Below, in pieces: positions 1 to 23,399 of a stretch of 64,000 nt of DNA. Positions within the stretch are counted from its first letter, which is position 1, and each line of letters begins with the position of its first letter. The translations under genes and the position numbers were made by a program. A model generated the notes under the pieces. It had not been told where the DNA came from, did no database searches, and was given only the letters and a program-made list of their open reading frames with translations. Source of the DNA: Candidatus Saccharimonadota bacterium (GTDB lineage: Bacteria; Patescibacteriota; Saccharimonadia; Saccharimonadales; DTSZ01); the NCBI GenBank assembly GCA_012965045.1, contig DTSZ01000001.1, forward strand, positions 748,024 to 812,023, given 5' to 3'.

Positions 1-1741
1 CCATTGGCGCACCAGCAGGAACGTCAGCTTCAAAGGTCGGTTGAGCTTGGTCTCCAGATTCGTCTCCAATAACCGCTAAGGATGCCGCTACAGCAAAAGC
101 ACACAAGGCGCTTACTAAGCGAACGTTACGAGTTGCGTCATGGGCTCGCTCAAAGCCAGCTTGGTCAAACGGTTTAAGAGCGTCTGGGTAGGCAACTTGC
201 ATTTTTTCTACTGCTGTTGCTTCGTCAGGGTTGCCTTCTAGTGGCTTTGGAGCGCGCGTTTGTGACACCTGGTCAGCTAAATGCTCTTTGCGCTTGGTGT
301 CTTCAATTTTATTTTTGTGTCGCTCACTAACACCGGCCTGCCCGACCTTTATTAGACCGTACGAACCAGCAATAATAGCTAGAGTGTTTTCAAAGCCTCG
401 GCTCAAATCCATTTCTGAAACCCTAAAGTATAGTTCAGTAGCAAGAGTAGCAACAGCAGCACCTACATGTGCAACTTTGTGATCTTTGCTCCACTTATAT
501 GATTCACCTTCTTTTTCAACACCTTCGTTTGGGAATAAAGGTGGAACCCCAACCTCATTCGGGTCTTTTCCAGCTTTAGTTTTTGCCTTTCGGCGCTTGT
601 CATCTGCCTTCGATTCTGACTTAGGGTGCAAATCTCGGTAAGTGCTTGTAAACTTAAAGCCTTCTTCAAGGGCGTGGGCGGCTTGCTTGTCAAAAGCCTC
701 GCGCATTTTCATCGCGGCCTGCTCTTCATAGCTGGCTTCTTTTATGGCAACTTCTTCTTCGGTGCCGTCTAGGTGCTCATTTGAGGTGTTAAATTCTTCT
801 CGTGCTTTATGCCCTTTTGCTAATAAAACCTCGCTGCCAATTGTGGCGGCGTGTTTGGTGCATGTTTGCCAGTATGATTCGGCTTCTTCGTCCGTGAGTC
901 TACCTGCGCTGCTTTGTACTGGATTCTCCACGTGCAGCAACTGTGCTTCACCGGCTCTTTGAGCAAGCGAATCTATTAGATCATATGAAAGTGCAAGAAT
1001 TTTCTCACGTACTGTACCGGTGCTACCAACAAGATCGGCATATCGATTAAGTCGAATAGCGACATTTCTTGTAGTGCCGCCATCGTCGAATTCTATTGTG
1101 TTTAATTTTTTTATTGCACCTATTGGTAGTGAGTTGGGGTCAGCAACCAGCTCGTTTGCAACCTCTTGTAAAGCTTTAATTTCTTTGTCTAGTTGATCTT
1201 CAAAATTAGCAGCCGTAAAGTCATCTTTTTTTCGATCATAACTTGTAGATTGCCAAAAACCATCTTCAAACGGATTATTGCGCTCCCACTCTTTGCGGCC
1301 TTTTACTTTTTTCTTTTCCGCTTCTTCAGCTTGTACTTCTGCCGCGCTCTTACCCGCCCCAGTGCCGCTACCGGTTGATTTTGCCCGTGCTGCATCTGCT
1401 GCCGCCCGTGCTTGGTCTGCCTTTGCCCGTGCGTCGGCGTCGGCTTCGGCTTTTCTAGCATCAGCTTCGGCTCGTGCTTTTTCAGCATCAGCATTAGCTC
1501 TTACAACATCAGCAGTGGTTGCTTGAGCTCCTCCAACTAGATCTTTAAGCATGTCAAATGCACTCTGTGTTGCTTCTGCTTGGCCCTCTGCCCGAGCTGC
1601 TCTTTCTATTGCTTCAACCTCTGCTGGCGTAAATGTATGACCTTGTTCAACTACTCCGTCTTGTGCAGCTACAACATGATTGTCGCTATTAGATTCGCCA
1701 TTAGACTCTGGGATTTGAGGGATACTTTCGCCATCCGCCAT
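1..1741 (-). CDS. hypothetical protein, C-terminus beyond window edge (>=580 aa), Ala/Glu/Lys/Asp-rich coiled-coil-like N-terminal third
   Basis: Absent from the ORF track because it has no stop inside the window. I read this frame codon by codon from ATG (complement of 1739-1741) to nt 2 and found no stop. GAGGTG SD (complement of 1749-1754) lies 7 nt upstream. Starts MADGESIPQIPESNGE; contains ADAEKARAEADARKAEADADARAKADQARAAADAARAK. Confidence 0.6.
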   Translation of the reverse strand, partial: MADGESIPQIPESNGESNSDNHVVAAQDGVVEQGHTFTPAEVEAIERAARAEGQAEATQSAFDMLKDLVGGAQATTADVVRANADAEKARAEADARKAEADADARAKADQARAAADAARAKSTGSGTGAGKSAAEVQAEEAEKKKVKGRKEWERNNPFEDGFWQSTSYDRKKDDFTAANFEDQLDKEIKALQEVANELVADPNSLPIGAIKKLNTIEFDDGGTTRNVAIRLNRYADLVGSTGTVREKILALSYDLIDSLAQRAGEAQLLHVENPVQSSAGRLTDEEAESYWQTCTKHAATIGSEVLLAKGHKAREEFNTSNEHLDGTEEEVAIKEASYEEQAAMKMREAFDKQAAHALEEGFKFTSTYRDLHPKSESKADDKRRKAKTKAGKDPNEVGVPPLFPNEGVEKEGESYKWSKDHKVAHVGAAVATLATELYFRVSEMDLSRGFENTLAIIAGSYGLIKVGQAGVSERHKNKIEDTKRKEHLADQVSQTRAPKPLEGNPDEATAVEKMQVAYPDALKPFDQAGFERAHDATRNVRLVSALCAFAVAASLAVIGDESGDQAQPTFEADVPAGAPM

Positions 1742-1860: not shown

Positions 1861-2745
1861 ATGCAAGTGAAAAAACAAATATTTACATTACTCGTTGGAC
1901 TCGCACTACCAATCGTGTTCTTTTGGCCTGTTTCAGCACAAAGCTCGGTAACAATTTATGACTATGAAGAGCCGGACCCCGTATACACCGCCACTAATAT
2001 ACGGAAAAGACTCTGTGGCAGTAGCGGCTGTGGTGGTGAAGAGCGCTATTTATTCATCGAAAGGGATGGCGCGGAATATATTTTTCGGTCGTCTTCTAAC
2101 CAAGAAATTATTGTAGAAAACATATGTTCACAGGTTGGACTAGTTGTCAGTACAAATACCTATCAGAGTATCGAGGATAGTAACGTTTTTAGAGAAAGAT
2201 TTAATATCAATCAAACTTCTAATCCCATATGCCCAAGCCCTGGAGACTCAGGCCAAAGCACGCCAACTATTCCGGACGACGAACCTGCTCCAAGTCCAGC
2301 AGAAGAGCCGAGTACTGAGGAAACAGCCACTACTGACCCAGAGCCAGCCACACGCCAAGGTCCTGATGCTGTACAGGACTCAACCAGTATCGATGCAACG
2401 CCGTGTGAAGATAACGAGGTTTTTATAAGTATAGGTGTTGGCGATGATCCGGCTATTCGCGAAGTTGAAGGCGGTTATTGTATTCTTTCTGACGCAGATT
2501 CTGGCCTGGCTGGAAACCCAATAATTGTTTATTTAAAAGGGATCATTAGGTTTTTAGCGGTTGGTGTTGGTCTAGTGGTAACCACCGCTATTGTAGTGGC
2601 CGGGATCCAGTATTCTTCGTCGAGGGATAATCCGCAACTTATCCAGGCTGCTATGCAGCGGTTGACTAATGCTATTATAGCTTTGATAACATTTATTTTT
2701 ATGGCGACAATACTTAATTTCTTAATACCAGGAGGACTGTTGTAG
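1861..2745 (+). CDS. secreted Cys/Pro/Thr-rich protein with C-terminal TrbC/VirB2-like two-TM pilin module (array member 1)
   Basis: 294-aa ORF; signal-like N-terminus LLVGLALPIVFFWPVSA. C-terminal FLAVGVGLVVTTAIVVAGIQYSSSRDNPQLIQAAMQRLTNAIIALITFIFM has the same TM-loop-TM layout as the six downstream genes. Confidence 0.6.
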   Translation: MQVKKQIFTLLVGLALPIVFFWPVSAQSSVTIYDYEEPDPVYTATNIRKRLCGSSGCGGEERYLFIERDGAEYIFRSSSNQEIIVENICSQVGLVVSTNTYQSIEDSNVFRERFNINQTSNPICPSPGDSGQSTPTIPDDEPAPSPAEEPSTEETATTDPEPATRQGPDAVQDSTSIDATPCEDNEVFISIGVGDDPAIREVEGGYCILSDADSGLAGNPIIVYLKGIIRFLAVGVGLVVTTAIVVAGIQYSSSRDNPQLIQAAMQRLTNAIIALITFIFMATILNFLIPGGLL

Positions 2746-3392
2746 TGAAGAAGCTTTTCATTCCATTATTAGTAGCTTTGTTGGTTACTGTCTTTCCGTC
2801 CCCTATTAAAGTTAGTGCAGACCACGGTGCAGGGTCGTTGTGTACTGACGGAACGATTATTTTGGACGACAACACTACTTGTTCTGATCAAGGCAAAACT
2901 GCTACATCTGCTGCCGTACAAGCTGCATGTCACGATGCTGGCAGCTCGACCGCTGATGCTGGAGAAAGAGCTGGAGCTCGTTTTGCATGTATCCAAAATC
3001 AAACCACAGATGCTGATCAGCCTGAGAATCCAGTCGTTCCTGGAAGTTCGAGCGGCAATGCTTGTACGCTTGGCCAAAACAACTTTTTTGGTGTTCCGCC
3101 TTGGCACCGGTACCTCGACGGTCAGCTCGACGCTGATGGAAGTTGTTCGGTGAAGATAAATCAACTGACAGACATATGGAAAATAGTACTGGCCGTATTG
3201 CAAATCCTATTAAGAGTAGCCGCCTATGTAGCCACTGGATTTATGATTTATGCCGGCTTTAGATACATGACTTCTAATGGAAACCCAGAAAAAACTAAAC
3301 AAGCACTGGGTTCTATTCGTCTCGCCGCTATTGGGTTAATTATAACTATTGCTTCAAGTTTAATTGTGAGCTTTATTGCGGGGAGGTTCTAG
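2745..3392 (+). CDS. TrbC/VirB2-like pilin-module protein (array member 2)
   Basis: 215-aa ORF; GTG start 9 nt after AGGAGG, abutting the previous stop. Signal peptide LLVALLVTVFPSPIKVSA; Cys-rich ectodomain; C-terminal AAYVATGFMIYAGFRYMTSNGNPEKTKQALGSIRLAAIGLIITIASSLIV. Confidence 0.65.
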   Translation: MKKLFIPLLVALLVTVFPSPIKVSADHGAGSLCTDGTIILDDNTTCSDQGKTATSAAVQAACHDAGSSTADAGERAGARFACIQNQTTDADQPENPVVPGSSSGNACTLGQNNFFGVPPWHRYLDGQLDADGSCSVKINQLTDIWKIVLAVLQILLRVAAYVATGFMIYAGFRYMTSNGNPEKTKQALGSIRLAAIGLIITIASSLIVSFIAGRF

Positions 3393-3692
3393 ATGTTTAA
3401 TATATTTGCACAAGGAATTTTGGGCAGTTGCGAGGATTTGAACCTACCTAATTGTGATGCAGCACGAAATGGTGGCGGCAACGGCGTTGAACAGCTGCTA
3501 AGCATTGTGTTTTTAGTCGCGGGTGGTGTTGCGACACTATACATAATTATCGGGGCTATTAAGTTTGCTTCTTCTAACGGCGACCCTAATAATCTTAAAG
3601 CTGCACGCGATACCATTTTGTATGCGGTTATCGGCTTAATTGTGTCGCTGTCTGCGTTTGGCATAGTTCGCTTTGTAGTTGGGAGCACCTAG
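3393..3692 (+). CDS. TrbC/VirB2-like pilin (array member 3, shortest)
   Basis: 99-aa ORF with GGAGG SD. Cys pair SCEDLNLPNC, then LLSIVFLVAGGVATLYIIIGAIKFASSNGDPNNLKAARDTILYAVIGLIVSLSAFGIV. Confidence 0.65.
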   Translation: MFNIFAQGILGSCEDLNLPNCDAARNGGGNGVEQLLSIVFLVAGGVATLYIIIGAIKFASSNGDPNNLKAARDTILYAVIGLIVSLSAFGIVRFVVGST

Positions 3693-3701
3693 GGACCTAT
3701 C

Positions 3702-4178
3702 GTGAAAGTTTTACGTATTTTTTTAGCAGTAGTATTTATTTCGGCAGCAATGCCGTTAGCTGTTGTTGCAGTAGGGCCAGAACCAGATCCTGCTAATGAT
3801 GATCAACTTATATTGGTTGAACCTTCTGGCGGTGCAATTGACAGCACCATACCGACTACTGGACCAGATGCCGAGAATATTTTGTGCCGCGAAGGCGTGC
3901 CTGTGGTTGGCGGTGAGACCTGCGAAGGAGTAGATAATACCAGTTCGACTAGCGGGCTACTCACCTTATTCGATAATTTAATGGGCGGCCTGACGCGTCT
4001 AGCGGCTGCAATTGCAGTCATAATCATAATTGTATCTGGCATTCGTTACGCGACGTCTGGTGGAGATCCACAAGGGGTTGCAAGCGCTCGGTCTGCCATA
4101 ATATATGCATTAGTGGCATTAATAGTGGCGGTATCGACCGAAATTATTATAGACTTTGTATTAAGAAGGATAAGTTAA
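3702..4178 (+). CDS. TrbC/VirB2-like pilin (array member 4)
   Basis: 158-aa ORF; signal peptide FLAVVFISAAMPLAVVA; Cys pair CREGVPVVGGETC; C-terminal AAAIAVIIIIVSGIRYATSGGDPQGVASARSAIIYALVALIVAV. Confidence 0.65.
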   Translation: MKVLRIFLAVVFISAAMPLAVVAVGPEPDPANDDQLILVEPSGGAIDSTIPTTGPDAENILCREGVPVVGGETCEGVDNTSSTSGLLTLFDNLMGGLTRLAAAIAVIIIIVSGIRYATSGGDPQGVASARSAIIYALVALIVAVSTEIIIDFVLRRIS

Positions 4179-4595
4179 ATGAATAGTTTAGTTCTAAAAT
4201 TTTCATCAATCATGTTTATTGCCCTAGCAATTGGTTTCGTGTTTTTTGCGGGTTCTGTCCACGCGCAAACTGCTCGTGATGAGGTTTGCAAGGTTTCGCT
4301 CAGTGACCCAGGCGCAAGCTTTGATGTAGCAGCTGGTAAGTGTGTAGATAGCAACGGAAACTCACCAGAAGGGTTATTTGAAGGCCCGTTTAAGGCAATT
4401 ACCAATACACTCATTTTTATAACAGGGGCAATCTCAATACTGATGCTTGTCATTGGCGGCTTACGCTATACGGTGTCTGGCGGTGACGCTAATGCTGTTA
4501 GCGGGGCGAAAAATACCATAATTTACGCCATTGTTGGTTTGATCATATCTATCTTTGCGTTCTCAATTGTTAACTTTATCTTAGGAAGGATATAA
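4179..4595 (+). CDS. TrbC/VirB2-like pilin (array member 5)
   Basis: 138-aa ORF with AAGGA SD; signal peptide ending SVHA; Cys pair CKVSLSDPGASFDVAAGKC; C-terminal ITNTLIFITGAISILMLVIGGLRYTVSGGDANAVSGAKNTIIYAIVGLIISIFAF. Confidence 0.7.
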   Translation: MNSLVLKFSSIMFIALAIGFVFFAGSVHAQTARDEVCKVSLSDPGASFDVAAGKCVDSNGNSPEGLFEGPFKAITNTLIFITGAISILMLVIGGLRYTVSGGDANAVSGAKNTIIYAIVGLIISIFAFSIVNFILGRI

Positions 4596-4597
4596 AC

Positions 4598-5035
4598 ATG
4601 ACAAAAACAAAACAACTATTAACTGGGGTGCTAGTAGCCCTGGCATTGCTTTTTGTTGCTGCGGGGCTTTTGAGCGCTCCGGTAAGTGCACAAGATCCAA
4701 AAGCAGAGATCTGTGATTTAAATGATGAAAAAGATGACCAAGGTAACACGATTGTTAATTACACATATGATCCAGCTACCGGTGAATGTACAGCTCCTGC
4801 AGGACAAGGAAATGATATCGGTGACATCTTTAAAACTATTACAAACACCTTGTTGTTTTTAGTAGGTGCATTAGCGGTAATAATGTTAATTATTGGCGGC
4901 TTTAGGTATGTAGTTTCTGGCGGTGACGCCAATGCAGTGACTGGCGCGAAAAACACCATTCTCTACGCTATCGTTGGCATTGTTGTTGCCTTCTTGGCAT
5001 TCGCTGCGGTAAACTTCGTAACAAACAGGCTATAA
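4598..5035 (+). CDS. TrbC/VirB2-like pilin (array member 6)
   Basis: 145-aa ORF with AAGGA SD; signal peptide ending PVSA; Cys pair CDLNDEKDDQGNTIVNYTYDPATGEC; C-terminal ITNTLLFLVGALAVIMLIIGGFRYVVSGGDANAVTGAKNTILYAIVGIVVAFLAFAAVNFVTN. Confidence 0.7.
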   Translation: MTKTKQLLTGVLVALALLFVAAGLLSAPVSAQDPKAEICDLNDEKDDQGNTIVNYTYDPATGECTAPAGQGNDIGDIFKTITNTLLFLVGALAVIMLIIGGFRYVVSGGDANAVTGAKNTILYAIVGIVVAFLAFAAVNFVTNRL

Positions 5036-5049
5036 ACAGATTAGTAGCC

Positions 5050-5078
5050 TTGATATATTTCAAATAAATGGTTAAACT
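5050..5078 (+). promoter_or_regulatory. sigma70-type promoter internal to the pilin array, serving member 7
   Basis: TTGATA (5050-5055), 17-nt spacer, TAAACT (5073-5078); lies in the only sizeable intergenic gap of the array. Confidence 0.5.
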
Positions 5079-5112
5079 AAAATCAAAATAATCACGTTAA
5101 GGAGAATAAACA

Positions 5113-5535
5113 GTGATCAGTTCAGTAAAAAATCTAGGCTATAAAGCAGCAGGAGCATTTACAGCGACTATTGGTGGCGTACTTGCAAATGGTTCTAAGG
5201 TGTTCGCTCAACAGGCTACCCCAGACCCATGTGACATTACTTCAGGCGGAATTCAAGGTGGCGCGGACTGTGCTGCTCCAGAAGGCGCTCGTGGTGACCT
5301 ATTTGGTGACGGCGGTATCTTTAGCACTGTTTCAAACACACTTCTATTCTTAGTTGGTGCTATATCAGTCATTATGTTAATCATCGGCGGTATTCGCTAT
5401 GTTGTTTCAGCAGGTGACCAAAACGCTGTAACTGGCGCAAAGAACACTATTCTTTACGCTATCGTCGGTATTATTGTCGCTTTCCTAGCTTTCGCAGCAG
5501 TTAACTTTGTTACAAACCAGCTCGAAACTAACTAG
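5113..5535 (+). CDS. TrbC/VirB2-like pilin (array member 7; own promoter and terminator, candidate major pilin)
   Basis: 140-aa ORF; GTG start after AAGGAG; Cys pair CDITSGGIQGGADC; C-terminal VSNTLLFLVGAISVIMLIIGGIRYVVSAGDQNAVTGAKNTILYAIVGIIVAFLAFAAVNFVTN, near-identical in protein to member 6 but with many synonymous DNA differences. Confidence 0.7.
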   Translation: MISSVKNLGYKAAGAFTATIGGVLANGSKVFAQQATPDPCDITSGGIQGGADCAAPEGARGDLFGDGGIFSTVSNTLLFLVGAISVIMLIIGGIRYVVSAGDQNAVTGAKNTILYAIVGIIVAFLAFAAVNFVTNQLETN

Positions 5536-5554: not shown

Positions 5555-5586
5555 AAAAAACTCCACTTTAATCGGTGGAGTTTTTA
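5555..5586 (+). terminator. intrinsic terminator after pilin array
   Basis: aaaaaaCTCCACtttaatcgGTGGAGttttt: GC stem with A-tract/U-tract flanks, 20 nt after the stop at 5535. Confidence 0.6.
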
Positions 5587-5596
5587 GTATCAAACG

Positions 5597-5626
5597 AAAA
5601 ACCCACTCAGGTTGGAGTGGGTTTTT
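5597..5626. terminator. bidirectional intrinsic terminator (serves hsp20 on the minus strand)
   Basis: aaaaACCCACTCaggttgGAGTGGGTtttt: 8-bp stem with A and T tracts on both sides, 24 nt beyond the hsp20 stop. Confidence 0.65.
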
Positions 5627-5649: not shown

Positions 5650-6108
5650 TTAGCTAATTTCGATTTTTCGTACAGTTTCTTGTTTTACTTTTTCGAAGCT
5701 TACAGTCAGAACACCGTCTTTAAGTTCTGCCTTAATACCTTCTTCTTTTACGCTCACTGGTAGAGTGATTGAGCGCGTGAATGCTCCCCAGTAACATTCC
5801 TGAACGTGGTAGTTTGGTTCGTCTTCTTTTACACCTGAGTGGCGTGTTCCTTGAATGCTCAGCGTGTTGTCAGTGATAGATACATCAAGGTCGCTGCGGT
5901 CGATACCTGCGATTGGGGCTTTTATCACTAATCGTTCTGGTGTTTCGTAAATATCAACAGCTAATTGACCTGGAACGGCATCTTCTTCGAGCCAGTCCTC
6001 TTGTTGTCCTGCTGGTTGCTGGTTGTCATCTTGATCGTCATCACCAAGAAAAGCTGCAGTTAGCTCGTCTTCAATAAGTAAATCGTCGTCTTGGCCTCTT
6101 CTAGCCAT
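5650..6108 (-). CDS. hsp20: Hsp20/alpha-crystallin family small heat-shock protein
   Basis: 152 aa. Alpha-crystallin core AVDIYETPERLVIKAPIAGIDRSDLDVSITDNTLSIQGTR...GAFTRSITLPVSVKEEGIKAELKDGVLTVSFEKV; acidic N-terminal extension; GGAGGG SD. Confidence 0.9.
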   Translation of the reverse strand: MARRGQDDDLLIEDELTAAFLGDDDQDDNQQPAGQQEDWLEEDAVPGQLAVDIYETPERLVIKAPIAGIDRSDLDVSITDNTLSIQGTRHSGVKEDEPNYHVQECYWGAFTRSITLPVSVKEEGIKAELKDGVLTVSFEKVKQETVRKIEIS

Positions 6109-6169: not shown

Positions 6170-6178
6170 TGCTATGAT
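6170..6178 (+). promoter_or_regulatory. extended -10 promoter (TGcTATGAT) for comF, back-to-back with a TATAAT on the minus strand for hsp20
   Basis: ttgcTATGATtataacc: TG at 6170-6171, -10 at 6173-6178; the complement of 6177-6182 reads TATAAT. Confidence 0.45.
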
Positions 6179-6209
6179 TATAACCAAAGTAACACTAGAG
6201 GAGCAAGCT

Positions 6210-6884
6210 ATGCATGTTGTCGAATTAGCTATTTCATTGATTGCGCCGCACACCTGCGTTAACTGTGGCTCATCTGAAGCGGTTCTGTGCGACGAGTGCT
6301 TGGTGGGTTTGAAAGATCCAGAAATTTCACGTTGCGTATATTGCAACACTCTAACCCAAGATAATAAAACCTGTGGTTCGTGCCGGCGCACCCACCCTTT
6401 GCAGCATATCTGGTCAACATCTAACTACTTAAAAGCCGAAACAGCAATTCAAGCCTACAAATTTGGACGAGTTCGTGAGTTGTATAAACCGATAGCGAGT
6501 GAAATGGCTATAATAATTCCCTATTCTGACTACGACTACATTGTAGCCGTGCCGACTGCCCCACGCCGAATTAGGGTTCGGGGCTATGATCAAGCAGAGC
6601 TATTAGCTAAACAAATTGCGGAGCTAACTAACACAAAAGCGCTCCAGCCCTTGTTTCATAGCGGTTCAAAGCGACAGCTCGGTTCTCGTCGTGACGCTCG
6701 CTTTATGCAAGCTCATCAAAGCTATCAGCTTAAGCGGGGTGTAGATCTTACAAACAGGCGGATTTTGCTGGTTGATGATGTTGTTACCACAGGAGCAACG
6801 CTGTCGGCATGCGCCCAGCGCTTAAAGTCCGCGGGTGCCCGGTCAGTAGATGGCCTTGTTTTTGCTCGACGCTCTAGGAAGTAA
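6210..6884 (+). CDS. comF: ComF family protein (phosphoribosyltransferase-type, competence-associated)
   Basis: N-terminal Cys pairs CVNCGS..CDEC and CVYCN..CGSC; C-terminal PRTase motif ILLVDDVVTTGATLSACAQRLKSAGA. I prefer ATG 6210 (AGAGGAG SD upstream) over the track start 6174. Confidence 0.85.
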   Translation: MHVVELAISLIAPHTCVNCGSSEAVLCDECLVGLKDPEISRCVYCNTLTQDNKTCGSCRRTHPLQHIWSTSNYLKAETAIQAYKFGRVRELYKPIASEMAIIIPYSDYDYIVAVPTAPRRIRVRGYDQAELLAKQIAELTNTKALQPLFHSGSKRQLGSRRDARFMQAHQSYQLKRGVDLTNRRILLVDDVVTTGATLSACAQRLKSAGARSVDGLVFARRSRK

Positions 6885-6992: not shown

Positions 6993-7082
6993 GGAAGGGT
7001 GACCGAGTGGTTGATGGTACCGGTCTTGAAAACCGGCGTGCCCTCACGGGTACCGAGGGTTCGAATCCCTCCCCTTCCGCCA
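6993..7082 (+). tRNA. tRNA-Ser (anticodon TGA)
   Basis: GGAAGGG acceptor pairs with CCCTTCC; anticodon loop cTTGAaa; long variable arm; GGTTCGAATCC T-arm; encoded CCA. Close to the E. coli tRNA-Ser(UGA) layout. Confidence 0.95.
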
Positions 7083-11402: not shown

Positions 11403-14400
11403 ATGTCCAAACCAAAAACAAAGAAACATAACCACCCTGTGCGGCATTTTTTGACTGCAAAACTCCATGTGCAGCAATTCGCTGAACCGCTGTCAGTTCG
11501 AGAACGTATAGTTGGGGCCATTGCCCTTATTGTGGCAGTGAATGCCATTCTTGGTTACAGCGGTGTAGCTACAACTCAAAATGTCGGTGATACCCGAGCG
11601 GTTCCGGCCGGGTCATGTGGCCACGATATTGGCTGGGACTCCTCAACCAAAGCCGGTGGACTCCCGAGCCTAGACAGCACAAGTGGTGAAGCGGATTTCA
11701 CGTTTGAAAACTCAGCCGTTCTCGACCCAACCACTAATGGAGCGCTTACCTGTGGTTCCTTCGATTTCCCTCCTGACAGTCAGCTCGACCCAGCAATTGC
11801 CGTGTCGTTTGCAGTGACACAAATTCCAGAAGTTGATGAAGCTGTTGATGAAGTGGAAGAGGAAGCGGAAGTCCAGGCTACGGATGATACCCTCCAGCCC
11901 CCAGTCGAAGACCCTATTGAGCAAAACTCAAATTTTACTTATGACCTGTCATTGTTAAGCCAGGAGGTAGCGGAAACTGCTGTTCACGTAGAACCGAGCG
12001 ACGAACTGCCTGCCGACTCGCTGGCTCAACTAGAAATCAGTGGCGATAACGGCGAAAACTGGCAAGCAGTCTATGCGTTTACGTCTACTCAACAGTCAAA
12101 CTTCACTAACTCGAACTATGTATATATTTCATTGCCGCCTTCGTACTTAGAAAATACTGAAAAATTGCAGGCCCGCGTTGTTGGTTTGTCTCGAGCCGAT
12201 GCCAGCACTACCCTGCTGGTGGACAGTTTGTTTATGACATATGAAATCGGCCAACAAACGAACTTGAGCGTTGTTCAAATTGGCGAAAATGGCGACCCGC
12301 TTACTATCGATGAGCAGCTTGTTTCTACCTCTGACTCAATAGTATTCGAATTTACTACTCAAGCTCAGGATGACACTTTGGTTGATGGAGTTGGCTCTCA
12401 GTTGAACGGACTGTTTGGCCAAGACGATATTCAACCAAGCAACGTTGAGATAAAAACTCAGATCATCAACAGTAGCGGCGAAACGATTGAAGACGTTGAA
12501 ACAAACATTAGCTACAAGCAAAAAGACACCGTAGGCCGAGATGTCTGGGAGGTTGAAGTAACTGCGCCAGCTCAATTTACTCCTGGAGAGCATACGGCTC
12601 ACGTTAGCGTGAGCGATACCGATGGAGCAACCCAATCAATCGAACAAGACTTTTTGTGGGGCGTGCTGGCAATCAACACCGACAAATCAGCCTACACTAT
12701 TGGCGACAATGCCCTGTTGCAGCTAGCGGTGCTAAACGATAATGGTGAACCAGTGTGTGATGCTGAAGTTACGGTTGGAGTGTATCTAAATGACACCCAG
12801 ACTGACAGTCTGTCTACCAAGGACAACCGACTGACGGTGGCTGACAGCTGTAGTTTGTACGAGGATCATATTGAAGCTGACTACAGCGGTAAGACCCAAT
12901 TTAGCCTACCAGGAACCTATGAACTCCGAGTTCAGGCAACTACCCGCACCGGTAGCTACAGCATTGTTGAGGTTATTGAGGTAAGCGACACTCAAGACTA
13001 CAGCGTGCAGCGGACCGGTCCAACGCGTATTTACCCACCATTAACCTACCCAATGATCATTGAGGTAACAACGGCCGACGGGTTTAGCGGCACAGTGGTG
13101 GAACGAGTACCTCGTAGTTTTGAAATCGAGACTATTGATTTTGCGGAAAATTACAAATTAGTGTACACCGACGATCGCTATTCGTATATCGAATGGGACG
13201 TTACTATCGCCGCTGGTGAGTCAAAAAAGCTTGGCTATTCATTTGATGCACCAGACATTGCACCAGAATTCTTTTTAGCTGGCCCGCTTGAATTTAAATC
13301 AACTAGCGATGGCCAGCAGCCGCAACTTCTACATACCGAGCAGCGACAGTGGCAAATAGCTAGTGACGCCCTGGCGGACATTGCTATCTACCGCGAGGCT
13401 ACGGGTGCTGATGTTATTGGCACCACCGTTACCAATATAGATTGGGATACAACTACCACTCAGGGTGCCCCCTATTCGCTTCAAGCCAACACAATCGATA
13501 TTGATCTGGCTGATGCCGGACACTATTTCGTAACCTACACGCTGCCAACTCAAACCAGCAGCGGCAGCAACCGTTCAGAAATTCAATCCTGGCTTCGATT
13601 AAACGATTCAACTGACTTAGCCTACGGTCGTGGACAGGGTTATATCCGTCGTTCTGGTGGAGCGGATGAGGGCTATAATCACGGTGCGGCAATTATTGAT
13701 GTGTCGGCTGGCGATGATATACGACTGCAAGCCCAGCGGACAGATGATAACTCTGCCACCGTTGAGCGACGGGCTAATAAGTCTGGCATTAACCTAGTTA
13801 AGTTGGATGATGATTGGGATTATTTGCGATCCCGACCAACCAGTGATCAAACCATTGGCAGTACCACCAGTTTTGAAACTGTCACTTTGGCTACAGACGA
13901 CGAAATTGATTCAGCCTCATTCAGCCGCTCTGGTGGCACGATAACCATAGCTGAAGCCGGTCATTATTTAGTTACTTTCAACATCGGTGTTACACATACC
14001 GACGGCGGAATTCGTATTAACGACGAAGCGCGACTGACGCTTGATGGTACAGAAATAGACGGCACCCGTGTGAGCACCTATGTTCGTGGAACTAACAGCA
14101 CAAATGATGGCATGTTAACTTGGACGGGAATCATTGAAACCACAGCTGCTAACCAAGATCTAGTGATGGAGATCCGGCGAGAGTCTGAAGTAAACCCAGC
14201 CACCCATAACACTAAAGCAGCCGAATCCGGTATTGCGATTGCTCGTCTGCCAGATGATGGCGACTACATTCGACTTGGTGAAACTGGTGGCGGCCAAGAC
14301 CTAAGCACCTCGCGAACCAGCATAACGTGGGACGAAACACTTGAAGAAGACACCGACAGTTTTGATCACGACGCAACTAACACTGAGCGAATTAACATCG

Positions 14401-17400
14401 AAGCCAATGGTGATTATTTGTTCTTCCATTCACTGTATTCTGCGCGGCCAGAAGGCAACGCCAACCGTGAGGCTCAGTTTTTTGAGTGGCAAGCTAATGG
14501 GTTGAGTTTGTATGAATGGGGCTCTTCCGGGCAGTTTAACCGCGGTGATCAAGGGGCGTATGATGCTCGAACTGCCGGGTCATCAACGGGCTTTGTGGCC
14601 AATAGTCTGACCGACACCGACTACATTGAGTTAACCCAAATAAATGAAACAGCAAATGCGACATCGACCTACCAGGCCGACAGAATGGGCGTGCAAGCTG
14701 TTCAATTGCAAAGTCTTATTGCGCCAGGAACACCGATTATGTCCCAAACTCACTTTCGGTGGCGCGACGACACAACCGACTTAAATTCAAGCGGTGGATA
14801 TTTAGCAGCCGAAGACTCGAATGCAATTTCTAGTATCGAAAAAAATACCAATTATCGGTTGCGTATTGCCGCAGCCAATACTGGCACCGGTGTTGATACA
14901 GTGGCCCGTAGCTATGAATTACAATTTGGAAGAATTACAAGTTCCGAGGCTACGTGTAGCGCTATTACGACCTGGACTGGCTTAAATGACAGTGCGACTG
15001 ACGCTTTTGAAATAGCCGAAACGCCGTATATATCACCAGATGGAGAAGCTACCAATCCAGCCTTACTTGCTAATAGCGAAGCCTATACCTACGTGTTTGG
15101 AGAAGGTCGCGAGTCGGCCGACACCACCGGCACAATCGGCCCCCTAAATGCGGCAACCTACACCGAGCTAGAATACAGTATTGAAGCAACCGACGAAGCA
15201 ATTCCGGCTAGCCAGTATTGTTTTAGGTTATTCGATGCAAATAACACCCAGGCTCTAACGAGCTACGTAACCTTCCCGACGGTCACGGTCGCAAGTGTTG
15301 CTGTTCCAGCTGGCTTGGGTGAGGCCGGCACCTTTACTAGTGCTGTCGATGGTGGTTGGACAACTGTTAATTTCATAGACAGCTATACAACTCCGGTGGT
15401 TGTCGGCAACAGCAACAGCCACAACGGACAAGCTGCATTAGTATTTGAAGCGCGGAACGTAACCAGCACTTCGGCCGACATGCGAGTGTGTGAGTCCGAG
15501 GGCTCATCCAGTAATGGGTGTGACACTCATGCTGCTGAAACAGTTGGCTATTTAGTGATCGACGCTGCAGAAACTGGAAACTACAGTGGGATCGAAGCTG
15601 GGACATTTAGTGTTAATGGAGACTTTACCACCACCACATCAAGCCCAACCTACGTCGACACCTACTCCACTGCCCCGTATGTATTTGCCAATGTAAATAC
15701 CGTAAACGACACCGAAGTCCCGATTGAGGTGGTGGTCACAACGACATCTACCACTGGTTTCACGGCCGGTATTTGTGACCACAGCCAAACAAATTCTGAT
15801 GCTTGTGACAATCATGGCAGCAATGAAACAGTTGGCTGGGTAGCAATTGACCCAAGCAATAGTCCATTTGATGTCACGAGCGACATCGGGCTGGTAAGTA
15901 TAGGCAATAGTACCTGGACTAACGTGTCATTTACGAGCGGATTTGATGATGTGCCGTCGGTGATTGTAGAATCGCAGACTGATACCGGTGCGCAAAATGT
16001 AGAAATTAATGAAGCCCGCAGTGTGAGCGTTGCAGGTGCCGATGTGCGTTTTTGTGAGATCGACACTCTTGATAGTTGCGACACTCACTCTGCTGACGAC
16101 GTTGCATGGGTGGCGATTGAGCAAGACACTTTTCATAACGTTGCTCTAAATCAAGACACCTACCGCTGGTATGCTAATGCAAACTCCACCACCCCTGGTG
16201 CGGCATTATCGAGTGAAAACACTGCTGCGTCTGGAGTGGCCGACGGCGGCATAGTTAGGTTGCGCATGGCTGTACAGGCTGGTACCGACATTGCGGTTAA
16301 CGACATTGATTTCACTTTGCAGTACGGTGCCGGCGAAGATTGTAGTCTAATTGGTAGCTGGACAGATGTTGGCGGTTTGGGTAGCGGCAGCATTTGGCGT
16401 GGCTATAATAACGGCAGTCCAGCTGACGAAACAACTCTACCAACTTCACTGTTAAACGGCGGGGGCAATCAACTACAAACCTATGAAGAAGAAAACGATT
16501 CTGCAACTAACCCTACGGCAATAGCTACTGGTCAACGCGGTGAGTGGGACTGGGTGTTAGAAAATAACGGCGCTACTGAGTCGACCAACTATTGTTTTAG
16601 AATGGTCGGCAGCGGTGGCGACCCTATTCAATATAGCCGCTATGCTGAGCTAATTACGGAAGCTATCCCAAGCAGTTTTTATGTTGAGCGCGCTAATCAA
16701 TGGACAACTGGGTCAACCAGTACTTGGCAGGATATTAATCTATCGAACGCTCCATACAACGTTCCGGCTAATTCGGCTGTAGAAATAACCATTATGAATG
16801 CAGATGCCAGCGATAGCTCCACGGCTGGTGTTCGGCAAAACGGCTCTAGTTTGAGTCGATTTACAAACTTACACGAAGCCGAGGGGGGTGGTTTCTTCGG
16901 AAGCCAGGGAAACGCGGTAATCACTATGCATGTACAAACGGATGCAACAGGAGTCATTGAGTATTACACCGATAATCCAGGTGAGACAACTTTTATGCTT
17001 GATGGCTACTGGGAGAGCGGTAGTTATGTTGAGGGTTGGAGCAACTTTACAGCAGGTGCAAGCAACACCTGGCAAGATGTTGATTTATCAGGGTTTCCTT
17101 ACGACGTACCAGTGAATCGTGTAATAGAAATCGTAGGCCAGAACGGAGAGGATGGAGCTGAAAATCAAATTGGTGTTCGAAGAAACAACTCAAGCTTAAG
17201 TAGAATAGTCGATGTTCAAGAGGCAGAAAATCCAGCCGACAGCTTTACTACCGTTACTTTCTTTACTCAAGCTGATCAAAATAGTCTAATTGAGGTATTT
17301 GCTGAGGATAATTCGAATGTTAATTTTTACTATGCTGGTTATTGGGACATACCGCCAGGCTATTACAACGAACTCGCCACAACCATAACAAACCCAACAA

Positions 17401-18890
17401 GTGACAGCACATGGCAAGCTCGTGATTTAACTGCTCAAGGTATTGCCGACAATGCTGTTGTAGAGGTGATAGCAGCGAATGGGGACACTAATACAGAAAA
17501 TGAATTTGGTTCAAGGACAAATGGTTCGGCGCTAAACCGTATTATAGATTTGGTAGAAGCAGAATCCGGTGGCTCTGAGCTGTGGCGCAATCATGTTCCC
17601 ACCGATACAAGTGGAGGCATTCAGCTGTATCATGAGGATGTGAGTGACACGCCCGTTACTTTTCATATGACAGGTGTTTGGACACCAAATATTGAGCCTG
17701 ACGACCCGGTTAATCTCGATCAACAAGAAACAGATACTACATCGATTCCACTTGGCAATTGGCTAGACACCACAACCGTAAAGTTTGAAGGTGATATTAG
17801 CGATGTGCACGATTATGAGGTATTAGAACTATGTATTGAGGCGCAATTACTCGGGGTTGACTTTACGGATGTCGAAACCGCCTGCTCCAGTGAATTTGCC
17901 TACAATGGCACGACTGTTACCGTCGATTTTAATATCGGCTTAGCCAGTGGCGACAACGAATATCATTGGCAAGCTGCAACCCGTGATTTGTATGGGGCGT
18001 ATTCTAACTGGGTGAGCTTTGGCGCCAATGCTGAAAACGAACGCGATGTTGGCATCGACACTACTCCCCCAGTGCCCGGTATTGTGTATGACGGAACTGC
18101 AACAAGTATTGACGCCGACTTTAATGACGGAGCGCTGGATAGTTTAAGCGCCAATTGGGCTGGCTATAACGCAGGCGGTTCTGGGTTGGATCGCTATGAA
18201 TTATCAATCGGTACATCACAAGGTGCAACAGACGTATTAACCTGGACAGATGTTGCTGCCGTAGAATCGTATACGGCCAATTCATTATCGCTACGAACCA
18301 CTCAAACCTACTACGTCAATGTGCGGGCCTTTGATATTTTTGAGCGCAGTGGGCAAGCCAGCTCCGACGGCATGTATGTAGCGCCAACGCTTAGTTTTGC
18401 GGTGAGCCCAACTAACGTAACCTTCGACAGCTTAAATCCAAGCAATAGCTTTACCGACACCGAAACAGTTAGCCTCACTACCTCGACTAACGCCTATAAT
18501 GGTTACAATATTCGTGCCTATACATTGGGCGTGTTGAACGCGGTTAGCAATCCCGACACTATTGGCTTCTTTAACGGCGGAACCTATGCTGCCCCCGACG
18601 GATGGTTGGCGAGTGATCGAGGCTGGGGCTATCATTCAGATGACTCGCTGGTTGATGGTGTGAACCGGTTTAATTCATCAACCTGTCTGGGTGGTAATCC
18701 GCAGCCATGTTTTGCCCCATTCAGCACCACAGCTCCGGGCGATATTATTGCTGACAACACCGGTCCGATAACAGCTACCCCAATTACCAACGAAATATTC
18801 ACCATTACCCAGCGGGTGGGCGTTGATCAGTTCCAAGTTGCAGACGAATATCAAGGCACAGTTATCTACACTGTGACCCCGAGGTATTAA
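11403..18890 (+). CDS. giant (2495 aa) N-terminally anchored surface protein/adhesin with several repeat families and a C-terminal WxL-like domain
   Basis: Single uninterrupted ORF with AGGAGA SD. N-terminal basic stretch plus TM (IVGAIALIVAVNAILGY); three internal triple-repeat families; an FN3-like module (DTTPPVPGIVYDG...YYVNVRAFD); a C-terminal domain homologous to the products of 19892 and 21162. Confidence 0.85.
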   Translation: MSKPKTKKHNHPVRHFLTAKLHVQQFAEPLSVRERIVGAIALIVAVNAILGYSGVATTQNVGDTRAVPAGSCGHDIGWDSSTKAGGLPSLDSTSGEADFTFENSAVLDPTTNGALTCGSFDFPPDSQLDPAIAVSFAVTQIPEVDEAVDEVEEEAEVQATDDTLQPPVEDPIEQNSNFTYDLSLLSQEVAETAVHVEPSDELPADSLAQLEISGDNGENWQAVYAFTSTQQSNFTNSNYVYISLPPSYLENTEKLQARVVGLSRADASTTLLVDSLFMTYEIGQQTNLSVVQIGENGDPLTIDEQLVSTSDSIVFEFTTQAQDDTLVDGVGSQLNGLFGQDDIQPSNVEIKTQIINSSGETIEDVETNISYKQKDTVGRDVWEVEVTAPAQFTPGEHTAHVSVSDTDGATQSIEQDFLWGVLAINTDKSAYTIGDNALLQLAVLNDNGEPVCDAEVTVGVYLNDTQTDSLSTKDNRLTVADSCSLYEDHIEADYSGKTQFSLPGTYELRVQATTRTGSYSIVEVIEVSDTQDYSVQRTGPTRIYPPLTYPMIIEVTTADGFSGTVVERVPRSFEIETIDFAENYKLVYTDDRYSYIEWDVTIAAGESKKLGYSFDAPDIAPEFFLAGPLEFKSTSDGQQPQLLHTEQRQWQIASDALADIAIYREATGADVIGTTVTNIDWDTTTTQGAPYSLQANTIDIDLADAGHYFVTYTLPTQTSSGSNRSEIQSWLRLNDSTDLAYGRGQGYIRRSGGADEGYNHGAAIIDVSAGDDIRLQAQRTDDNSATVERRANKSGINLVKLDDDWDYLRSRPTSDQTIGSTTSFETVTLATDDEIDSASFSRSGGTITIAEAGHYLVTFNIGVTHTDGGIRINDEARLTLDGTEIDGTRVSTYVRGTNSTNDGMLTWTGIIETTAANQDLVMEIRRESEVNPATHNTKAAESGIAIARLPDDGDYIRLGETGGGQDLSTSRTSITWDETLEEDTDSFDHDATNTERINIEANGDYLFFHSLYSARPEGNANREAQFFEWQANGLSLYEWGSSGQFNRGDQGAYDARTAGSSTGFVANSLTDTDYIELTQINETANATSTYQADRMGVQAVQLQSLIAPGTPIMSQTHFRWRDDTTDLNSSGGYLAAEDSNAISSIEKNTNYRLRIAAANTGTGVDTVARSYELQFGRITSSEATCSAITTWTGLNDSATDAFEIAETPYISPDGEATNPALLANSEAYTYVFGEGRESADTTGTIGPLNAATYTELEYSIEATDEAIPASQYCFRLFDANNTQALTSYVTFPTVTVASVAVPAGLGEAGTFTSAVDGGWTTVNFIDSYTTPVVVGNSNSHNGQAALVFEARNVTSTSADMRVCESEGSSSNGCDTHAAETVGYLVIDAAETGNYSGIEAGTFSVNGDFTTTTSSPTYVDTYSTAPYVFANVNTVNDTEVPIEVVVTTTSTTGFTAGICDHSQTNSDACDNHGSNETVGWVAIDPSNSPFDVTSDIGLVSIGNSTWTNVSFTSGFDDVPSVIVESQTDTGAQNVEINEARSVSVAGADVRFCEIDTLDSCDTHSADDVAWVAIEQDTFHNVALNQDTYRWYANANSTTPGAALSSENTAASGVADGGIVRLRMAVQAGTDIAVNDIDFTLQYGAGEDCSLIGSWTDVGGLGSGSIWRGYNNGSPADETTLPTSLLNGGGNQLQTYEEENDSATNPTAIATGQRGEWDWVLENNGATESTNYCFRMVGSGGDPIQYSRYAELITEAIPSSFYVERANQWTTGSTSTWQDINLSNAPYNVPANSAVEITIMNADASDSSTAGVRQNGSSLSRFTNLHEAEGGGFFGSQGNAVITMHVQTDATGVIEYYTDNPGETTFMLDGYWESGSYVEGWSNFTAGASNTWQDVDLSGFPYDVPVNRVIEIVGQNGEDGAENQIGVRRNNSSLSRIVDVQEAENPADSFTTVTFFTQADQNSLIEVFAEDNSNVNFYYAGYWDIPPGYYNELATTITNPTSDSTWQARDLTAQGIADNAVVEVIAANGDTNTENEFGSRTNGSALNRIIDLVEAESGGSELWRNHVPTDTSGGIQLYHEDVSDTPVTFHMTGVWTPNIEPDDPVNLDQQETDTTSIPLGNWLDTTTVKFEGDISDVHDYEVLELCIEAQLLGVDFTDVETACSSEFAYNGTTVTVDFNIGLASGDNEYHWQAATRDLYGAYSNWVSFGANAENERDVGIDTTPPVPGIVYDGTATSIDADFNDGALDSLSANWAGYNAGGSGLDRYELSIGTSQGATDVLTWTDVAAVESYTANSLSLRTTQTYYVNVRAFDIFERSGQASSDGMYVAPTLSFAVSPTNVTFDSLNPSNSFTDTETVSLTTSTNAYNGYNIRAYTLGVLNAVSNPDTIGFFNGGTYAAPDGWLASDRGWGYHSDDSLVDGVNRFNSSTCLGGNPQPCFAPFSTTAPGDIIADNTGPITATPITNEIFTITQRVGVDQFQVADEYQGTVIYTVTPRY
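13375..14715 (+). repeat. three tandem ~147-aa protein repeats inside the giant ORF (borders approximate)
   Basis: Units carry AGHYFVTYTL / AGHYLVTFNI / NGDYLFFHSL and end LVKLDDDWDYLR / IARLPDDGDYIRL / GVQAVQLQSL. Confidence 0.5.
15340..16125 (+). repeat. three tandem H-type-lectin-like repeats inside the giant ORF
   Basis: GWTTVNFIDSYTTPVVVG...RNVTSTSADMRVCE...CDTHAAETVGYLVIDA; PTYVDTYSTAPYVFANVNT...TTGFTAGICD...CDNHGSNETVGWVAID; TWTNVSFTSGFDDVPSVIVESQ...VAGADVRFCE...CDTHSADDVAWVAIE. Confidence 0.4.
16690..17700 (+). repeat. three tandem ~115-aa repeats of unknown type inside the giant ORF
   Basis: TWQDINLSNAPYNVPANSAVEITIMNAD..VRQNGSSLSRFTNLHEAEGGG; TWQDVDLSGFPYDVPVNRVIEIVGQNGE..VRRNNSSLSRIVDVQEAENP; TWQARDLTAQGIADNAVVEVIAANGD..SRTNGSALNRIIDLVEAESGG. 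Confidence 0.55.
18385..18887 (+). other. C-terminal ~165-aa WxL-like domain of the giant protein, shared with the two ~350-aa paralogs
   Basis: PTLSFAVSP..TNAYNGYNIRAY..GTYAAPDGW..WGYHSDD..FAPF..YQGTVIYTVTPRY* aligns with PTLSFDIQP..TNASSGYNVYLRY..GTYASPSAF..FGFHTDD..FAAF..YNSTLIYTAVATY*. Confidence 0.6.
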
Positions 18891-19792: not shown

Positions 19793-19795
19793 ACA

Positions 19796-19824
19796 TTGAA
19801 ATTATGTCGAGCTTATGCTATAAA
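19796..19824 (+). promoter_or_regulatory. sigma70 promoter with extended -10 for the first ~350-aa subunit gene
   Basis: TTGAAA (19796-19801), 17-nt spacer ending TGc, TATAAA (19819-19824); AAGGGGA SD before ATG 19892. Confidence 0.55.
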
Positions 19825-19891
19825 TTCACTATAGTTTTAAACATCAAAAACTAATAGCTATTATAAAAAACAAACAAAGGGGAAGATTATT

Positions 19892-20941: not shown

Positions 20942-20964
20942 TTATAGGTTAGATACCAAGCAAA

Positions 20965-20994
20965 AGCACCCAAATAGAACTGGGTGCTTTTTTG
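20965..20994 (+). terminator. intrinsic terminator after subunit paralog A
   Basis: AGCACCCAaatagaacTGGGTGCTtttttt. Confidence 0.75.
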
Positions 20995-21161
20995 GTATTT
21001 GGGTGTTTGAAGTGTCCGTTATGTATAACCAAAGTGCTAACCACGGGTTTTAGTGTTAAAATGGTGTTAAATTTTAAACATAAGCCTGTCTTATGTATGA
21101 CATAGGTGTTTATGTTGAAAATTTGGATATAAAAAGAAAATGATTAGAGAGAGGGAGAAAA

Positions 21162-22217: not shown

Positions 22218-22317
22218 CGCTGACGTAACGGCGTAGTACGCCTGACAACAAAGGTGGGCAATTTGCAAACTTGCTTACGCTTAAGGTAAACTTAATATAA
22301 AATTAACAGAGGTAAAT

Positions 22318-23382: not shown

Positions 23383-23399
23383 AAGTTGTTAGGATTAAG

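Follow-up and report, generated by a model that had tools for sequence, protein, structure and literature searches.

Does an array of tandem pilin-like genes in Saccharibacteria encode the subunits of a single structure, or a set of interchangeable surface variants? This question is raised by seven genes at positions 1861-5535 of a 64,000-nucleotide (nt) stretch of contig DTSZ01000001.1 (hereafter the window), which is ordinary chromosomal DNA of a marine Candidatus Saccharibacteria metagenome-assembled genome. We consider it probable that these genes, which by position are orthologous to SEML1_0014-0019 of Southlakia epibionticum ML1, form the pilin operon of a chromosomal, conjugation-derived type IV secretion system (T4SS) of the monoderm MPF-FATA-like kind, and that the products are subunits of one pilus or conduit. 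This kind of feature is already known, as such arrays were reported in 2018, 2023, and 2025, and their description as a feature of the Patescibacteria (Candidate Phyla Radiation, CPR), which a first-pass annotation of the window had also given, is found in PMC12102498. With a counterpart that has already been published and studied by experiment, the locus itself offers little novelty.

We compared four public copies of the locus (L001 to L004), which come from Lau Basin and Mariner JGI metagenome contigs, a Logan assembly, and an ENA scaffold. Each of them matches the window with 100% identity, and cluster members of the proteins differ in the called start codon only. Given this identity, one clonal population has apparently been sampled repeatedly. 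For the comparison across species, we scanned species-representative genomes with the family alignment, which provided 80 loci, almost all from Saccharibacteria; open reading frames (ORFs) were called in these loci and then searched with a hidden Markov model (HMM) of the C-terminal module. Two close relatives, L007 and L089 (the closest), were used for the comparison of orthologues. Array members 1 to 7 are termed W1 to W7 in gene order, "module" denotes the 71-amino-acid (aa) C-terminal part, and "outer segment" denotes the N-terminal part before the module.

Seven tandem genes with a common C-terminal module

The first-pass annotation had reported seven co-oriented ORFs between 1861 and 5535, and all of them are present at these positions on the plus strand: W1 (1861-2745; 294 aa), W2 (2745-3392; 215 aa, its start overlapping the W1 stop by 1 nt), W3 (3393-3692; 99 aa), W4 (3702-4178; 158 aa), W5 (4179-4595; 138 aa), W6 (4598-5035; 145 aa), and W7 (5113-5535; 140 aa, with a GTG start). 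The start of W4 may be at 3750, an alternative that was called on the JGI contig. From W1 to W6, neighboring genes either overlap by 1 nt or lie no more than 9 nt apart. A hydropathy scan and the alignment confirm that all seven proteins share a C-terminal module of two hydrophobic helices and a conserved turn. The turn motif quoted at first pass, G-x-(R/K/Q)-(Y/F)-x-x-S-x-G-(D/N)-(P/A/Q), is exact in W2, W4, W5, W6, and W7, but W3 has AIKFASSNGDP (A for G) and W1 has GIQYSSSRDNP (D for G).

Most array genes encode a putative leader, a presumably extracytoplasmic N-terminal segment, usually with one Cys pair, and a C-terminal hairpin of two transmembrane (TM) helices. The variable part, previously described as a loop, is this N-terminal segment and does not lie between the two TM helices. 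According to hydropathy, the putative leaders of W1, W2, W4, W5, and W6 are hydrophobic and end in an A-x-A/Q-like site, that of W7 is weakly hydrophobic, and W3 has none; the W3-type genes of 24 out of 28 species likewise lack a hydrophobic leader. It had also been claimed that each short member has one Cys pair. In agreement, W3 to W7 contain exactly two Cys each, and the strings quoted for them are correct, whereas W1 and W2 contain six each. The outer segment of W3 is short (C-x7-C), W4 and W5 have one Cys pair each, the pair of W6 bounds an indel-rich loop, and the outer motif of W7 is C-x12-C ending in GADCA. The Cys pair of the outer segment likely forms a disulfide. Among the 455 array pilins retrieved, exactly two Cys precede the module in 247 and no Cys does so in 126, odd counts are rare (35), and the module is devoid of Cys in 410. 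In an alignment of 74 W6/W7-like sequences, both Cys are at least 90% conserved.

The two long members differ in architecture from the others. W1 combines a putative leader with a long six-Cys ectodomain that includes a linker rich in Pro, Glu, and Thr, and its divergent two-helix module ends in PGGLL. In W2-type proteins, a Cys pair flanks the strongly conserved motif F(L/F)G(F/V/I)P(T/P)W(Y/H)xYL, which lies immediately outside TM helix 1 and in which W120, Y121, and L124 are invariant or nearly so (alignment A3); no known domain matches this motif. The ectodomains of W1 and W2 had no match in either Pfam or the Protein Data Bank (PDB).

W2 and W3 share a reading frame, with a single TAG followed by ATG between them (3390-3395), and the same holds for L007. 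Readthrough into a W2-W3 fusion is unlikely because the W2/W3 junctions of other species show frame-shifted overlaps, and the shared frame was judged a coincidence. In a natural 172-aa protein found elsewhere (P0002), two pilin modules are fused in tandem, which gives four TM helices.

The array adjoins a T4SS operon

The first-pass annotation had stated that no VirB4-, VirB6-, or VirB8-like gene lies next to the array. This is true inside the window only; on the source contig, VirB4-type, VirB6-like, and PrgI genes adjoin, and they had been missed because their operon runs off the left edge of the window. This divergent operon starts at 1741 on the minus strand, continues past the window edge, and is separated from the pilin operon on the plus strand by a divergent intergenic region (1742-1860). 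Its first gene, of which the window holds the 5' 580 of 627 codons (1-1741, minus strand), encodes a protein with two hydrophobic stretches near its C-terminal end and no Pfam match. The following genes, all on the minus strand, encode two TrbL_3 proteins of 963 and 896 aa (second and third; both precomputed matches, with a weak TrbL match at E 0.0048 for the former in our own Pfam run), a PrgI (VirB3-like) protein (fourth; 295 aa, E 1.7e-11), a TraC-like protein (fifth; 310 aa, precomputed match), a VirB4-type ATPase (sixth; 657 aa, P-loop_TraG 2.6e-27, AAA_10 2.1e-11), a protein of 1181 aa with no significant Pfam match (seventh), and an Amidase_2 protein, i.e., a cell-wall amidase (eighth; 456 aa, E 1.4e-10). 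Their domain matches suggest that the two TrbL_3 proteins are VirB6-like.

The divergent arrangement of T4SS and pilin genes is seen in ~80 Saccharibacteria loci, and the complete layout, with an Hsp20 gene and a ComF-like gene downstream of the array, is shared by most to nearly all of 82 loci from ~80 species genomes. In the window, this conserved right-hand neighborhood comprises the Hsp20 gene (5650-6108, minus strand; Pfam HSP20 E 2.5e-20), a gene for a ComF/GntX-like phosphoribosyltransferase with a zinc ribbon (6174-6884, plus strand; Pfam Pribosyltran and DZR_2), and, following it, tRNA-Ser (6993-7082).

The experimentally studied counterpart is SEML1_0014-0019 of S. epibionticum ML1, a group of six plus-strand pilin genes of 312-558 bp, each classified as GD/ES/ES by transposon sequencing (Tn-seq) (PMC10633639, Table S1). 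As in the window, these are tandem PF18895 genes that diverge from the T4SS operon, the last gene lies behind a spacer of ~80 nt, and the array is followed by Hsp20 (SEML1_0020, minus strand), a K02242 ComF-like gene (plus strand), and tRNA-Ser. The synteny extends much further: along window positions 5650-51050 it includes Hsp20, ComF-like, tRNA-Ser, HIT, ValRS, TsaD, FemAB, MurE, PGI, FtsX/ABC, and tRNA-Ser, whose Southlakia counterparts lie in the first 60 kb of that genome. The Southlakia T4SS adjoins dnaA, and the window is thus probably located near the replication origin. The two arrays differ in that Southlakia has six genes and the window seven, and in that the long six-Cys ectodomains of W1 and W2 are a feature of the window; essentiality is established for the Southlakia array only.

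Order and types of array genes across Saccharibacteria

To compare array composition, we considered the 59 arrays that are not cut by a contig end. Six-gene arrays were the most frequent (30), followed by arrays of seven (11), eight (5), and five (5) genes, and the size ranged from 4 to 8 genes between species. Among W1 to W7, the best match of the first gene was W1 in 50 of 53 arrays, and that of the last gene was W7 in the same proportion (50 of 53), the usual order of types being W1, W2, W3, two or three W5/W6-like genes, and W7. L007 and L089 contain seven genes each, which are 1:1 orthologues of W1 to W7 in the same order. The Cys counts of L007 equal those of the window (6, 6, 2, 2, 2, 2, and 2), whereas L089 differs in W1, W2, and W4. 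The W7 type is the most conserved, with a median identity of 60% across species, and the length of the last gene product falls into a narrow range (interquartile range of 135-146 aa); that of the first gene product spans 111 to 502 aa. Judged by these sequence comparisons, the paralogue types of the array are old and distinct, and their order has been retained across ~50 species of Saccharibacteria.

In about a quarter of the related loci, an extra, lone PF18895 gene is found on the opposite strand a few kilobases downstream of the array, as illustrated by L019 (8406-8843, minus strand), L029 (11921-12337, minus strand), and L063 (14608-15015, minus strand). These genes resemble Southlakia SEML1_0024, a lone extra pilin gene that was non-essential in the Tn-seq experiment (PMC10633639). 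The window holds no such gene, as the module HMM matches only the seven array genes.

A spacer with a promoter-like site precedes the last gene

W7 is preceded by an AT-rich spacer of 77 nt (5036-5112, plus strand) that contains a promoter-like site (5050-5078, plus strand; TTGATA-17-TAAACT, preceded by TGG) and the strong ribosome-binding site AAGGAG; no terminator-like fold was detected in this spacer. On its own, the promoter-like site of the window scores no better than chance. However, the spacer before the last gene of other arrays has a median length of 70.5 nt and measures at least 40 nt in 49 out of 56 cases, whereas the remaining gaps within arrays are mostly much shorter (median of 1 nt), only 17 out of 228 being 40 nt or longer. 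A motif similar to CTTAACAA-N15-TCTGnTATAAC, with AAGGAG behind it, is common to these last-gene spacers, and a best promoter score of 10/12 was obtained for 21 of 47 spacers, compared with 25 of 940 shuffles. By comparison with this motif, the TTGATA-17-TAAACT site of the window is a diverged copy of it.

Downstream of W7, an intrinsic terminator hairpin of 12 bp with a U-tract (5556-5585, plus strand; RNA fold of -17.5 kcal/mol, z -4.0) ends the pilin operon. A second hairpin with A-/U-tract flanks (5597-5626; folds of -17.9 and -18.4 kcal/mol on the two strands) can, according to these predicted folds, terminate the convergent hsp20 gene and also serve the pilin operon as a second terminator in reserve. 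The proposal made at first pass that W7 has its own promoter and terminator is thus supported by the conservation of the promoter-like motif in other species and by the hairpin at 5556-5585.

Divergence between paralogues and between orthologues

The paralogues of the window are 18-56% identical over their full length and 0-31% identical before the module. W6 and W7 share 84.5% identity in the module, 27% before it, and 55.7% over the full length, and the modules of W5 and W6 are 60.6% identical. Within the W6/W7 module, different codons are used at 34 of the 60 identical residues; the proportion of synonymous differences (pS) amounts to 0.73, which corresponds to saturation, the nonsynonymous divergence (dN) is 0.108, and the ratio of nonsynonymous to synonymous divergence (dN/dS) is at most ~0.04. 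These values agree with the initial view of an old duplication with purifying selection on the membrane module.

The outer segments had been described as hypervariable, which holds between paralogues but mostly not between orthologues. In the comparison with L089, the modules are 65-90% identical and the outer segments 30-70%, with dN values of 0.10-0.24 for the modules and 0.25-1.02 for the outer segments (0.25-0.6 for most members). For reference, the dN of the neighboring genes is 0.39 (ComF-like) and 0.04 (Hsp20), and dS is saturated throughout. Synonymous sites are saturated between species (pS of 0.56-0.89), and for the outer segments positive selection and relaxed constraint are thus not separable.

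Several outer motifs are kept in orthologues. Conservation is high for the loops of W3 (SCEDLNLPNC versus DCAELGLPNC) and W7 (CDITSGGIQGGADC versus CDISSGGISGGANC) and moderate for that of W5. Across the class, the W7-type motif C-x10-15-GA(D/N)CA can be recognized; a Cys-free version takes its place in 18 of 52 species, in which the putative disulfide is therefore dispensable. Real plasticity is found in W1, which differs from its closest relative by an indel of 140 aa in the ectodomain, in the loop of W6, which contains indels, and in W4, with a dN of ~1. With respect to elements that may support recombination or switching, the long repeats in the array correspond only to diverged paralogous modules (63-74% nt identity), and no convincing inverted repeat was found. 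The first-pass suggestion of a host- or receptor-specific diversification of the loops does not fit with these data, namely, the ordered 1:1 orthologues, the conserved loops of W3, W5, and W7, and outer dN values near that of the ComF-like gene.

Family assignment and predicted structure

The first-pass annotation had named the array proteins TrbC/VirB2-like pilins and proposed an HMM search as a check. Using the Pfam gathering cutoffs of 26.6 bits for PF18895 (T4SS_pilin) and 27.9 bits for PF04956 (TrbC/VirB2), W2 to W7 exceeded the former with scores of 34.8, 39.0, 37.2, 33.4, 42.0, and 31.8 bits, respectively. An HMM built from 67 homologues, from which the window sequences had been excluded, also detects W2 to W7, with E values of 1e-12 to 1e-57. 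Several members show weak TrbC/VirB2 matches (E 1e-5 to 5e-4), such as W4 (23.3 bits) and W5 (20.5 bits). The initial assignment is thus borne out by PF18895 for W2 to W7 and by weak TrbC similarity, but not by TrbC scores above the cutoff. A similar pattern was observed for 74 close homologues, all of which match PF18895 and 22 of which match TrbC at E<=1e-3 (best value, 1.3e-7). We interpret the TrbC scores as pointing to remote similarity and not to family membership. At E<=1e-3, the family has 2750 homologues, and PF18895 was present in 120 of 120 among the matches listed.

In the AlphaFold2 model of W6 (overall predicted local distance difference test score [pLDDT] of 81.8), a leader helix is followed by a small beta-hairpin that lies between the two Cys; residues 74-106 and 111-144 form a helical hairpin, which is predicted with a pLDDT of >90. 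In the model of W2, for which the homologue set was shallow (11 proteins), the hairpin is moderately confident and the ectodomain is unreliable (pLDDT of 67.9).

Other features of the window

Further genes of the window include those for ValRS, TsaD, two FemAB proteins, a Mur ligase, GroES/GroEL, PGI, an arginine-deiminase-family protein, ABC transporters, and tRNAs. The GC skew is positive almost throughout. The only ATPase that the first-pass annotation had considered a candidate for the system is encoded 36 kb from the array (41806-43947, plus strand). This 713-aa P-loop protein (TrwB_AAD_bind 1.6e-8 and DUF87; Walker A at residue 221 and Walker B at residue 449) has no TM helix and is a soluble TrwB/HerA-type homologue that resembles type IV coupling proteins; it is not the VirB4. 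That it works with this T4SS is uncertain, and the downstream ORFs at 43922-44644 and 45123-45608 have no Pfam match. According to PMC12102498, almost every member of the Patescibacteria has homologues of coupling proteins, which are usually encoded at a distance from virB4, and the Southlakia copy is not essential.

The giant protein encoded at 11403-18890 on the plus strand (2495 aa) contains a stretch that resembles BclA_C below the threshold. Downstream of its gene lie five ORFs in the same orientation (300-454 aa each; 18890-24764, plus strand), one of which contains WxLIP_PGBD and another Ig domains of the Big_6/Big_7/PKD type. From its domain content, the region at 11403-24764 looks like a cell-surface or adhesin cluster. 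A link to the CPR Pam pili was considered and rejected, as these are made of Ig-fold pilins assembled by donor-strand exchange; no link was established between the 11403-24764 cluster and Pam pili, and the ATP-synthase context of the latter was not found among the window ORFs scanned. Two paralogous genes for DUF1761 membrane proteins (52123-52545 and 59826-60272, plus strand) are ~7.7 kb apart.

Comparison with known systems

In the literature, the array proteins are held to be VirB2-like pilins of an essential T4SS (PMC10633639, PMC12102498, PMC12857230, and bioRxiv 10.1101/258137). The preprint among them describes an "array of small signal-peptide proteins related to VirB2" next to VirB4, VirB6, PrgI, and GntX in TM7x and other Saccharibacteria (bioRxiv 10.1101/258137). 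A census of Patescibacteria lists 441 VirB2-like arrays of 2-11 genes in 383 assemblies, with a mean identity of 25%, and proposes a role for them in adapting to different hosts (PMC12102498). This mean is consistent with the 18-56% identity among the window paralogues, and the array is near virB4 in both cases; the identity of W6 and W7 (55.7%) is slightly above the census maximum of 54%. The passages of the census and the preprint that were consulted contain no mention of the positional orthology of the paralogues or of a promoter-like spacer.

Like the VirB2/TrbC/TraA pilins of Gram-negative bacteria, the array proteins possess a two-helix hairpin with a polar or basic turn and, in most members, a putative leader, are encoded with VirB4 and VirB6, and show recurrent weak profile similarity to that family. 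In contrast to these systems, the bacterium of the window is a monoderm whose machinery is of the Gram-positive type and lacks VirB5, and it has seven paralogues with Cys-containing N-terminal outer segments that give sub-cutoff TrbC/VirB2 scores and no significant match to a solved pilin. Tandem, divergent VirB2-family genes in a host-associated bacterium are also known from Bartonella and Anaplasma phagocytophilum, as cited in PMC12102498. The paralogues of these species are thought to serve antigenic or host-range variation, whereas those studied here are of ancient origin and keep their order, and in Southlakia each one of them is required. Type IV pili and type II secretion pseudopili likewise combine one conserved, separately regulated subunit with several jointly encoded paralogues of low similarity. 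Their fold and assembly machinery are unrelated, and the analogy is functional only; it would suggest a bulk fiber with a tip or initiation complex.

Proposed model and alternative explanations

In the model that we favor, the array proteins would enter the membrane via Sec or YidC in an orientation that leaves the N-terminal segment on the outer face and the (R/K)Y..S.GD turn on the inner face. The adjacent VirB4, VirB6-like, and PrgI machinery would then extract the pilins and polymerize them into one short hollow pilus or conduit directed toward the host bacterium. The W7 type is a candidate for the major subunit because it combines the highest conservation with a conserved spacer and promoter-like motif and its own terminator; it would form the bulk of the structure, with W1 to W6 as low-copy specialized subunits (tip, base, or adaptor). 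The large, size-variable ectodomain of W1 would be the best candidate for host contact. The array thus probably provides one major and several minor pilins.

A number of observations weigh against this interpretation. W1 alone remains under the PF18895 cutoff (23.2 bits, E 7.2e-5) and is undetected by the HMM that excluded the window sequences, and is for the latter reason regarded as a divergent member. The membership of W1 is suggested by its architecture, by its array position, and by its orthologues, which themselves carry only "weak" PF18895 matches. None of the seven proteins reaches the TrbC/VirB2 cutoff of PF04956, the best being W6 with 26.1 bits (E 1e-5). The search of the PDB sequences with the family profile found no solved pilin, and a Foldseek search of the PDB with the W6 model returned generic helical hairpins with non-significant scores (best E 0.78), the archaeal Aeropyrum pernix conjugation pilin 8dfu being ranked fourth (E 1.4). 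A two-helix hairpin is too simple for a fold search to discriminate. No filament of PF18895 array proteins has yet been observed, and the long, thin filaments isolated from M. amalyticus are Pam pili and not PF18895 proteins (bioRxiv 10.64898/2026.03.03.709456). The basis of the major/minor assignment consists of promoter, conservation, and gene order only. Furthermore, the essentiality of the upstream array genes in the Southlakia Tn-seq experiment could in part be a polar effect.

Alternatively, the array proteins may form no extracellular filament and instead be membrane-embedded parts of the translocation channel, or small Sec-exported effectors or "secreted array" proteins. We regard this as unlikely, although it keeps some weight because no such pilus has yet been seen. 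Gram-positive-type T4SSs normally lack pili (PMC10633639 and PMC12857230), which is in line with the absence of significant matches to solved pilins and of a PF18895 filament from the M. amalyticus preparations. In addition, a TM7x transcriptome preprint names "six putative effector genes" in the T4SS region, which may or may not be the array genes. However, the combination of a putative leader, a two-helix hairpin, and a basic or polar turn corresponds to the VirB2/TrbC design, and TrbC matches recur in the family; two TM helices make soluble secreted effectors unlikely, and an array of seven types, one of which is set apart behind a promoter-like site, resembles filament systems with major and minor subunits.

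Even less probable, in our view, is that the paralogues are interchangeable alternative pilins that, through duplication and loop diversification, provide antigenic or receptor variation at the surface for different host strains, as proposed for the VirB2 arrays of Bartonella and Anaplasma; both the first-pass annotation and PMC12102498 read such arrays in this way. It is consistent with outer segments that cannot be aligned between paralogues and that, between orthologues, evolve 2-5 times faster than the module, with the large indels of W1 and W6 between close relatives, and with the variation in array size. Yet the 1:1 orthologues retain their order and Cys counts, the loops of W3, W5, and W7 are kept, with a W7 motif that is recognizable class-wide, and the outer dN of most members is similar to that of the ComF-like neighbor. 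There is also no sign of recent duplication or gene conversion, as the W6/W7 comparison is saturated and neither long identical repeats nor invertible elements are present, and every Southlakia array gene scored as essential, with the above caveat of transposon polarity. Non-redundant subunits are therefore favored over interchangeable variants because the types are ordered and ancient, the last gene is conserved and separately promoted, and the outer motifs are conserved in orthologues.

That the genes are unrelated two-TM proteins or chance ORFs, with a likeness to pilins that stems from hydrophobic composition, is highly improbable; weak matches to other two-TM families (DctQ, DUF6112, and DUF456) were also seen, but the number of homologues, with PF18895 in all 120 among the matches listed, the low dN/dS of the module, and the synteny with the T4SS in ~80 species argue against it.

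Relevance for Saccharibacteria

Cryo-electron tomography of M. amalyticus has revealed a tube with a width of 8.6-9 nm and a length of 60-70 nm that has a "barb" at its tip and bridges to the host (PMC11880426). A link of the array to this tube is speculation. The width of the tube is in the range of F-family conjugative pili. As a tentative and rather doubtful extension of the one-pilus model, the array may encode a heteropolymeric VirB2-type tube in a monoderm, in which W7 forms the shaft, the other members take the place of the missing VirB5 as a tip or initiation complex, and the W1 ectodomain is the likeliest tip element; such a tube could be the M. amalyticus conduit, or "lance with a tip barb." If true, this would be the first T4SS pilus with a set of minor pilins, and it would give the feeding conduit of Saccharibacteria a molecular identity.

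Only a few envelope systems of Saccharibacteria are established as essential to their epibiotic lifestyle; the T4SS with its pilin array belongs to these, and what it does is unsettled in the literature (PMC11665869 and PMC12857230). The locus analyzed here adds no new kind of system; however, the comparative picture narrows the hypotheses, and it singles out the W7 type for first tagging and imaging and the W1 type for studies of host contact.

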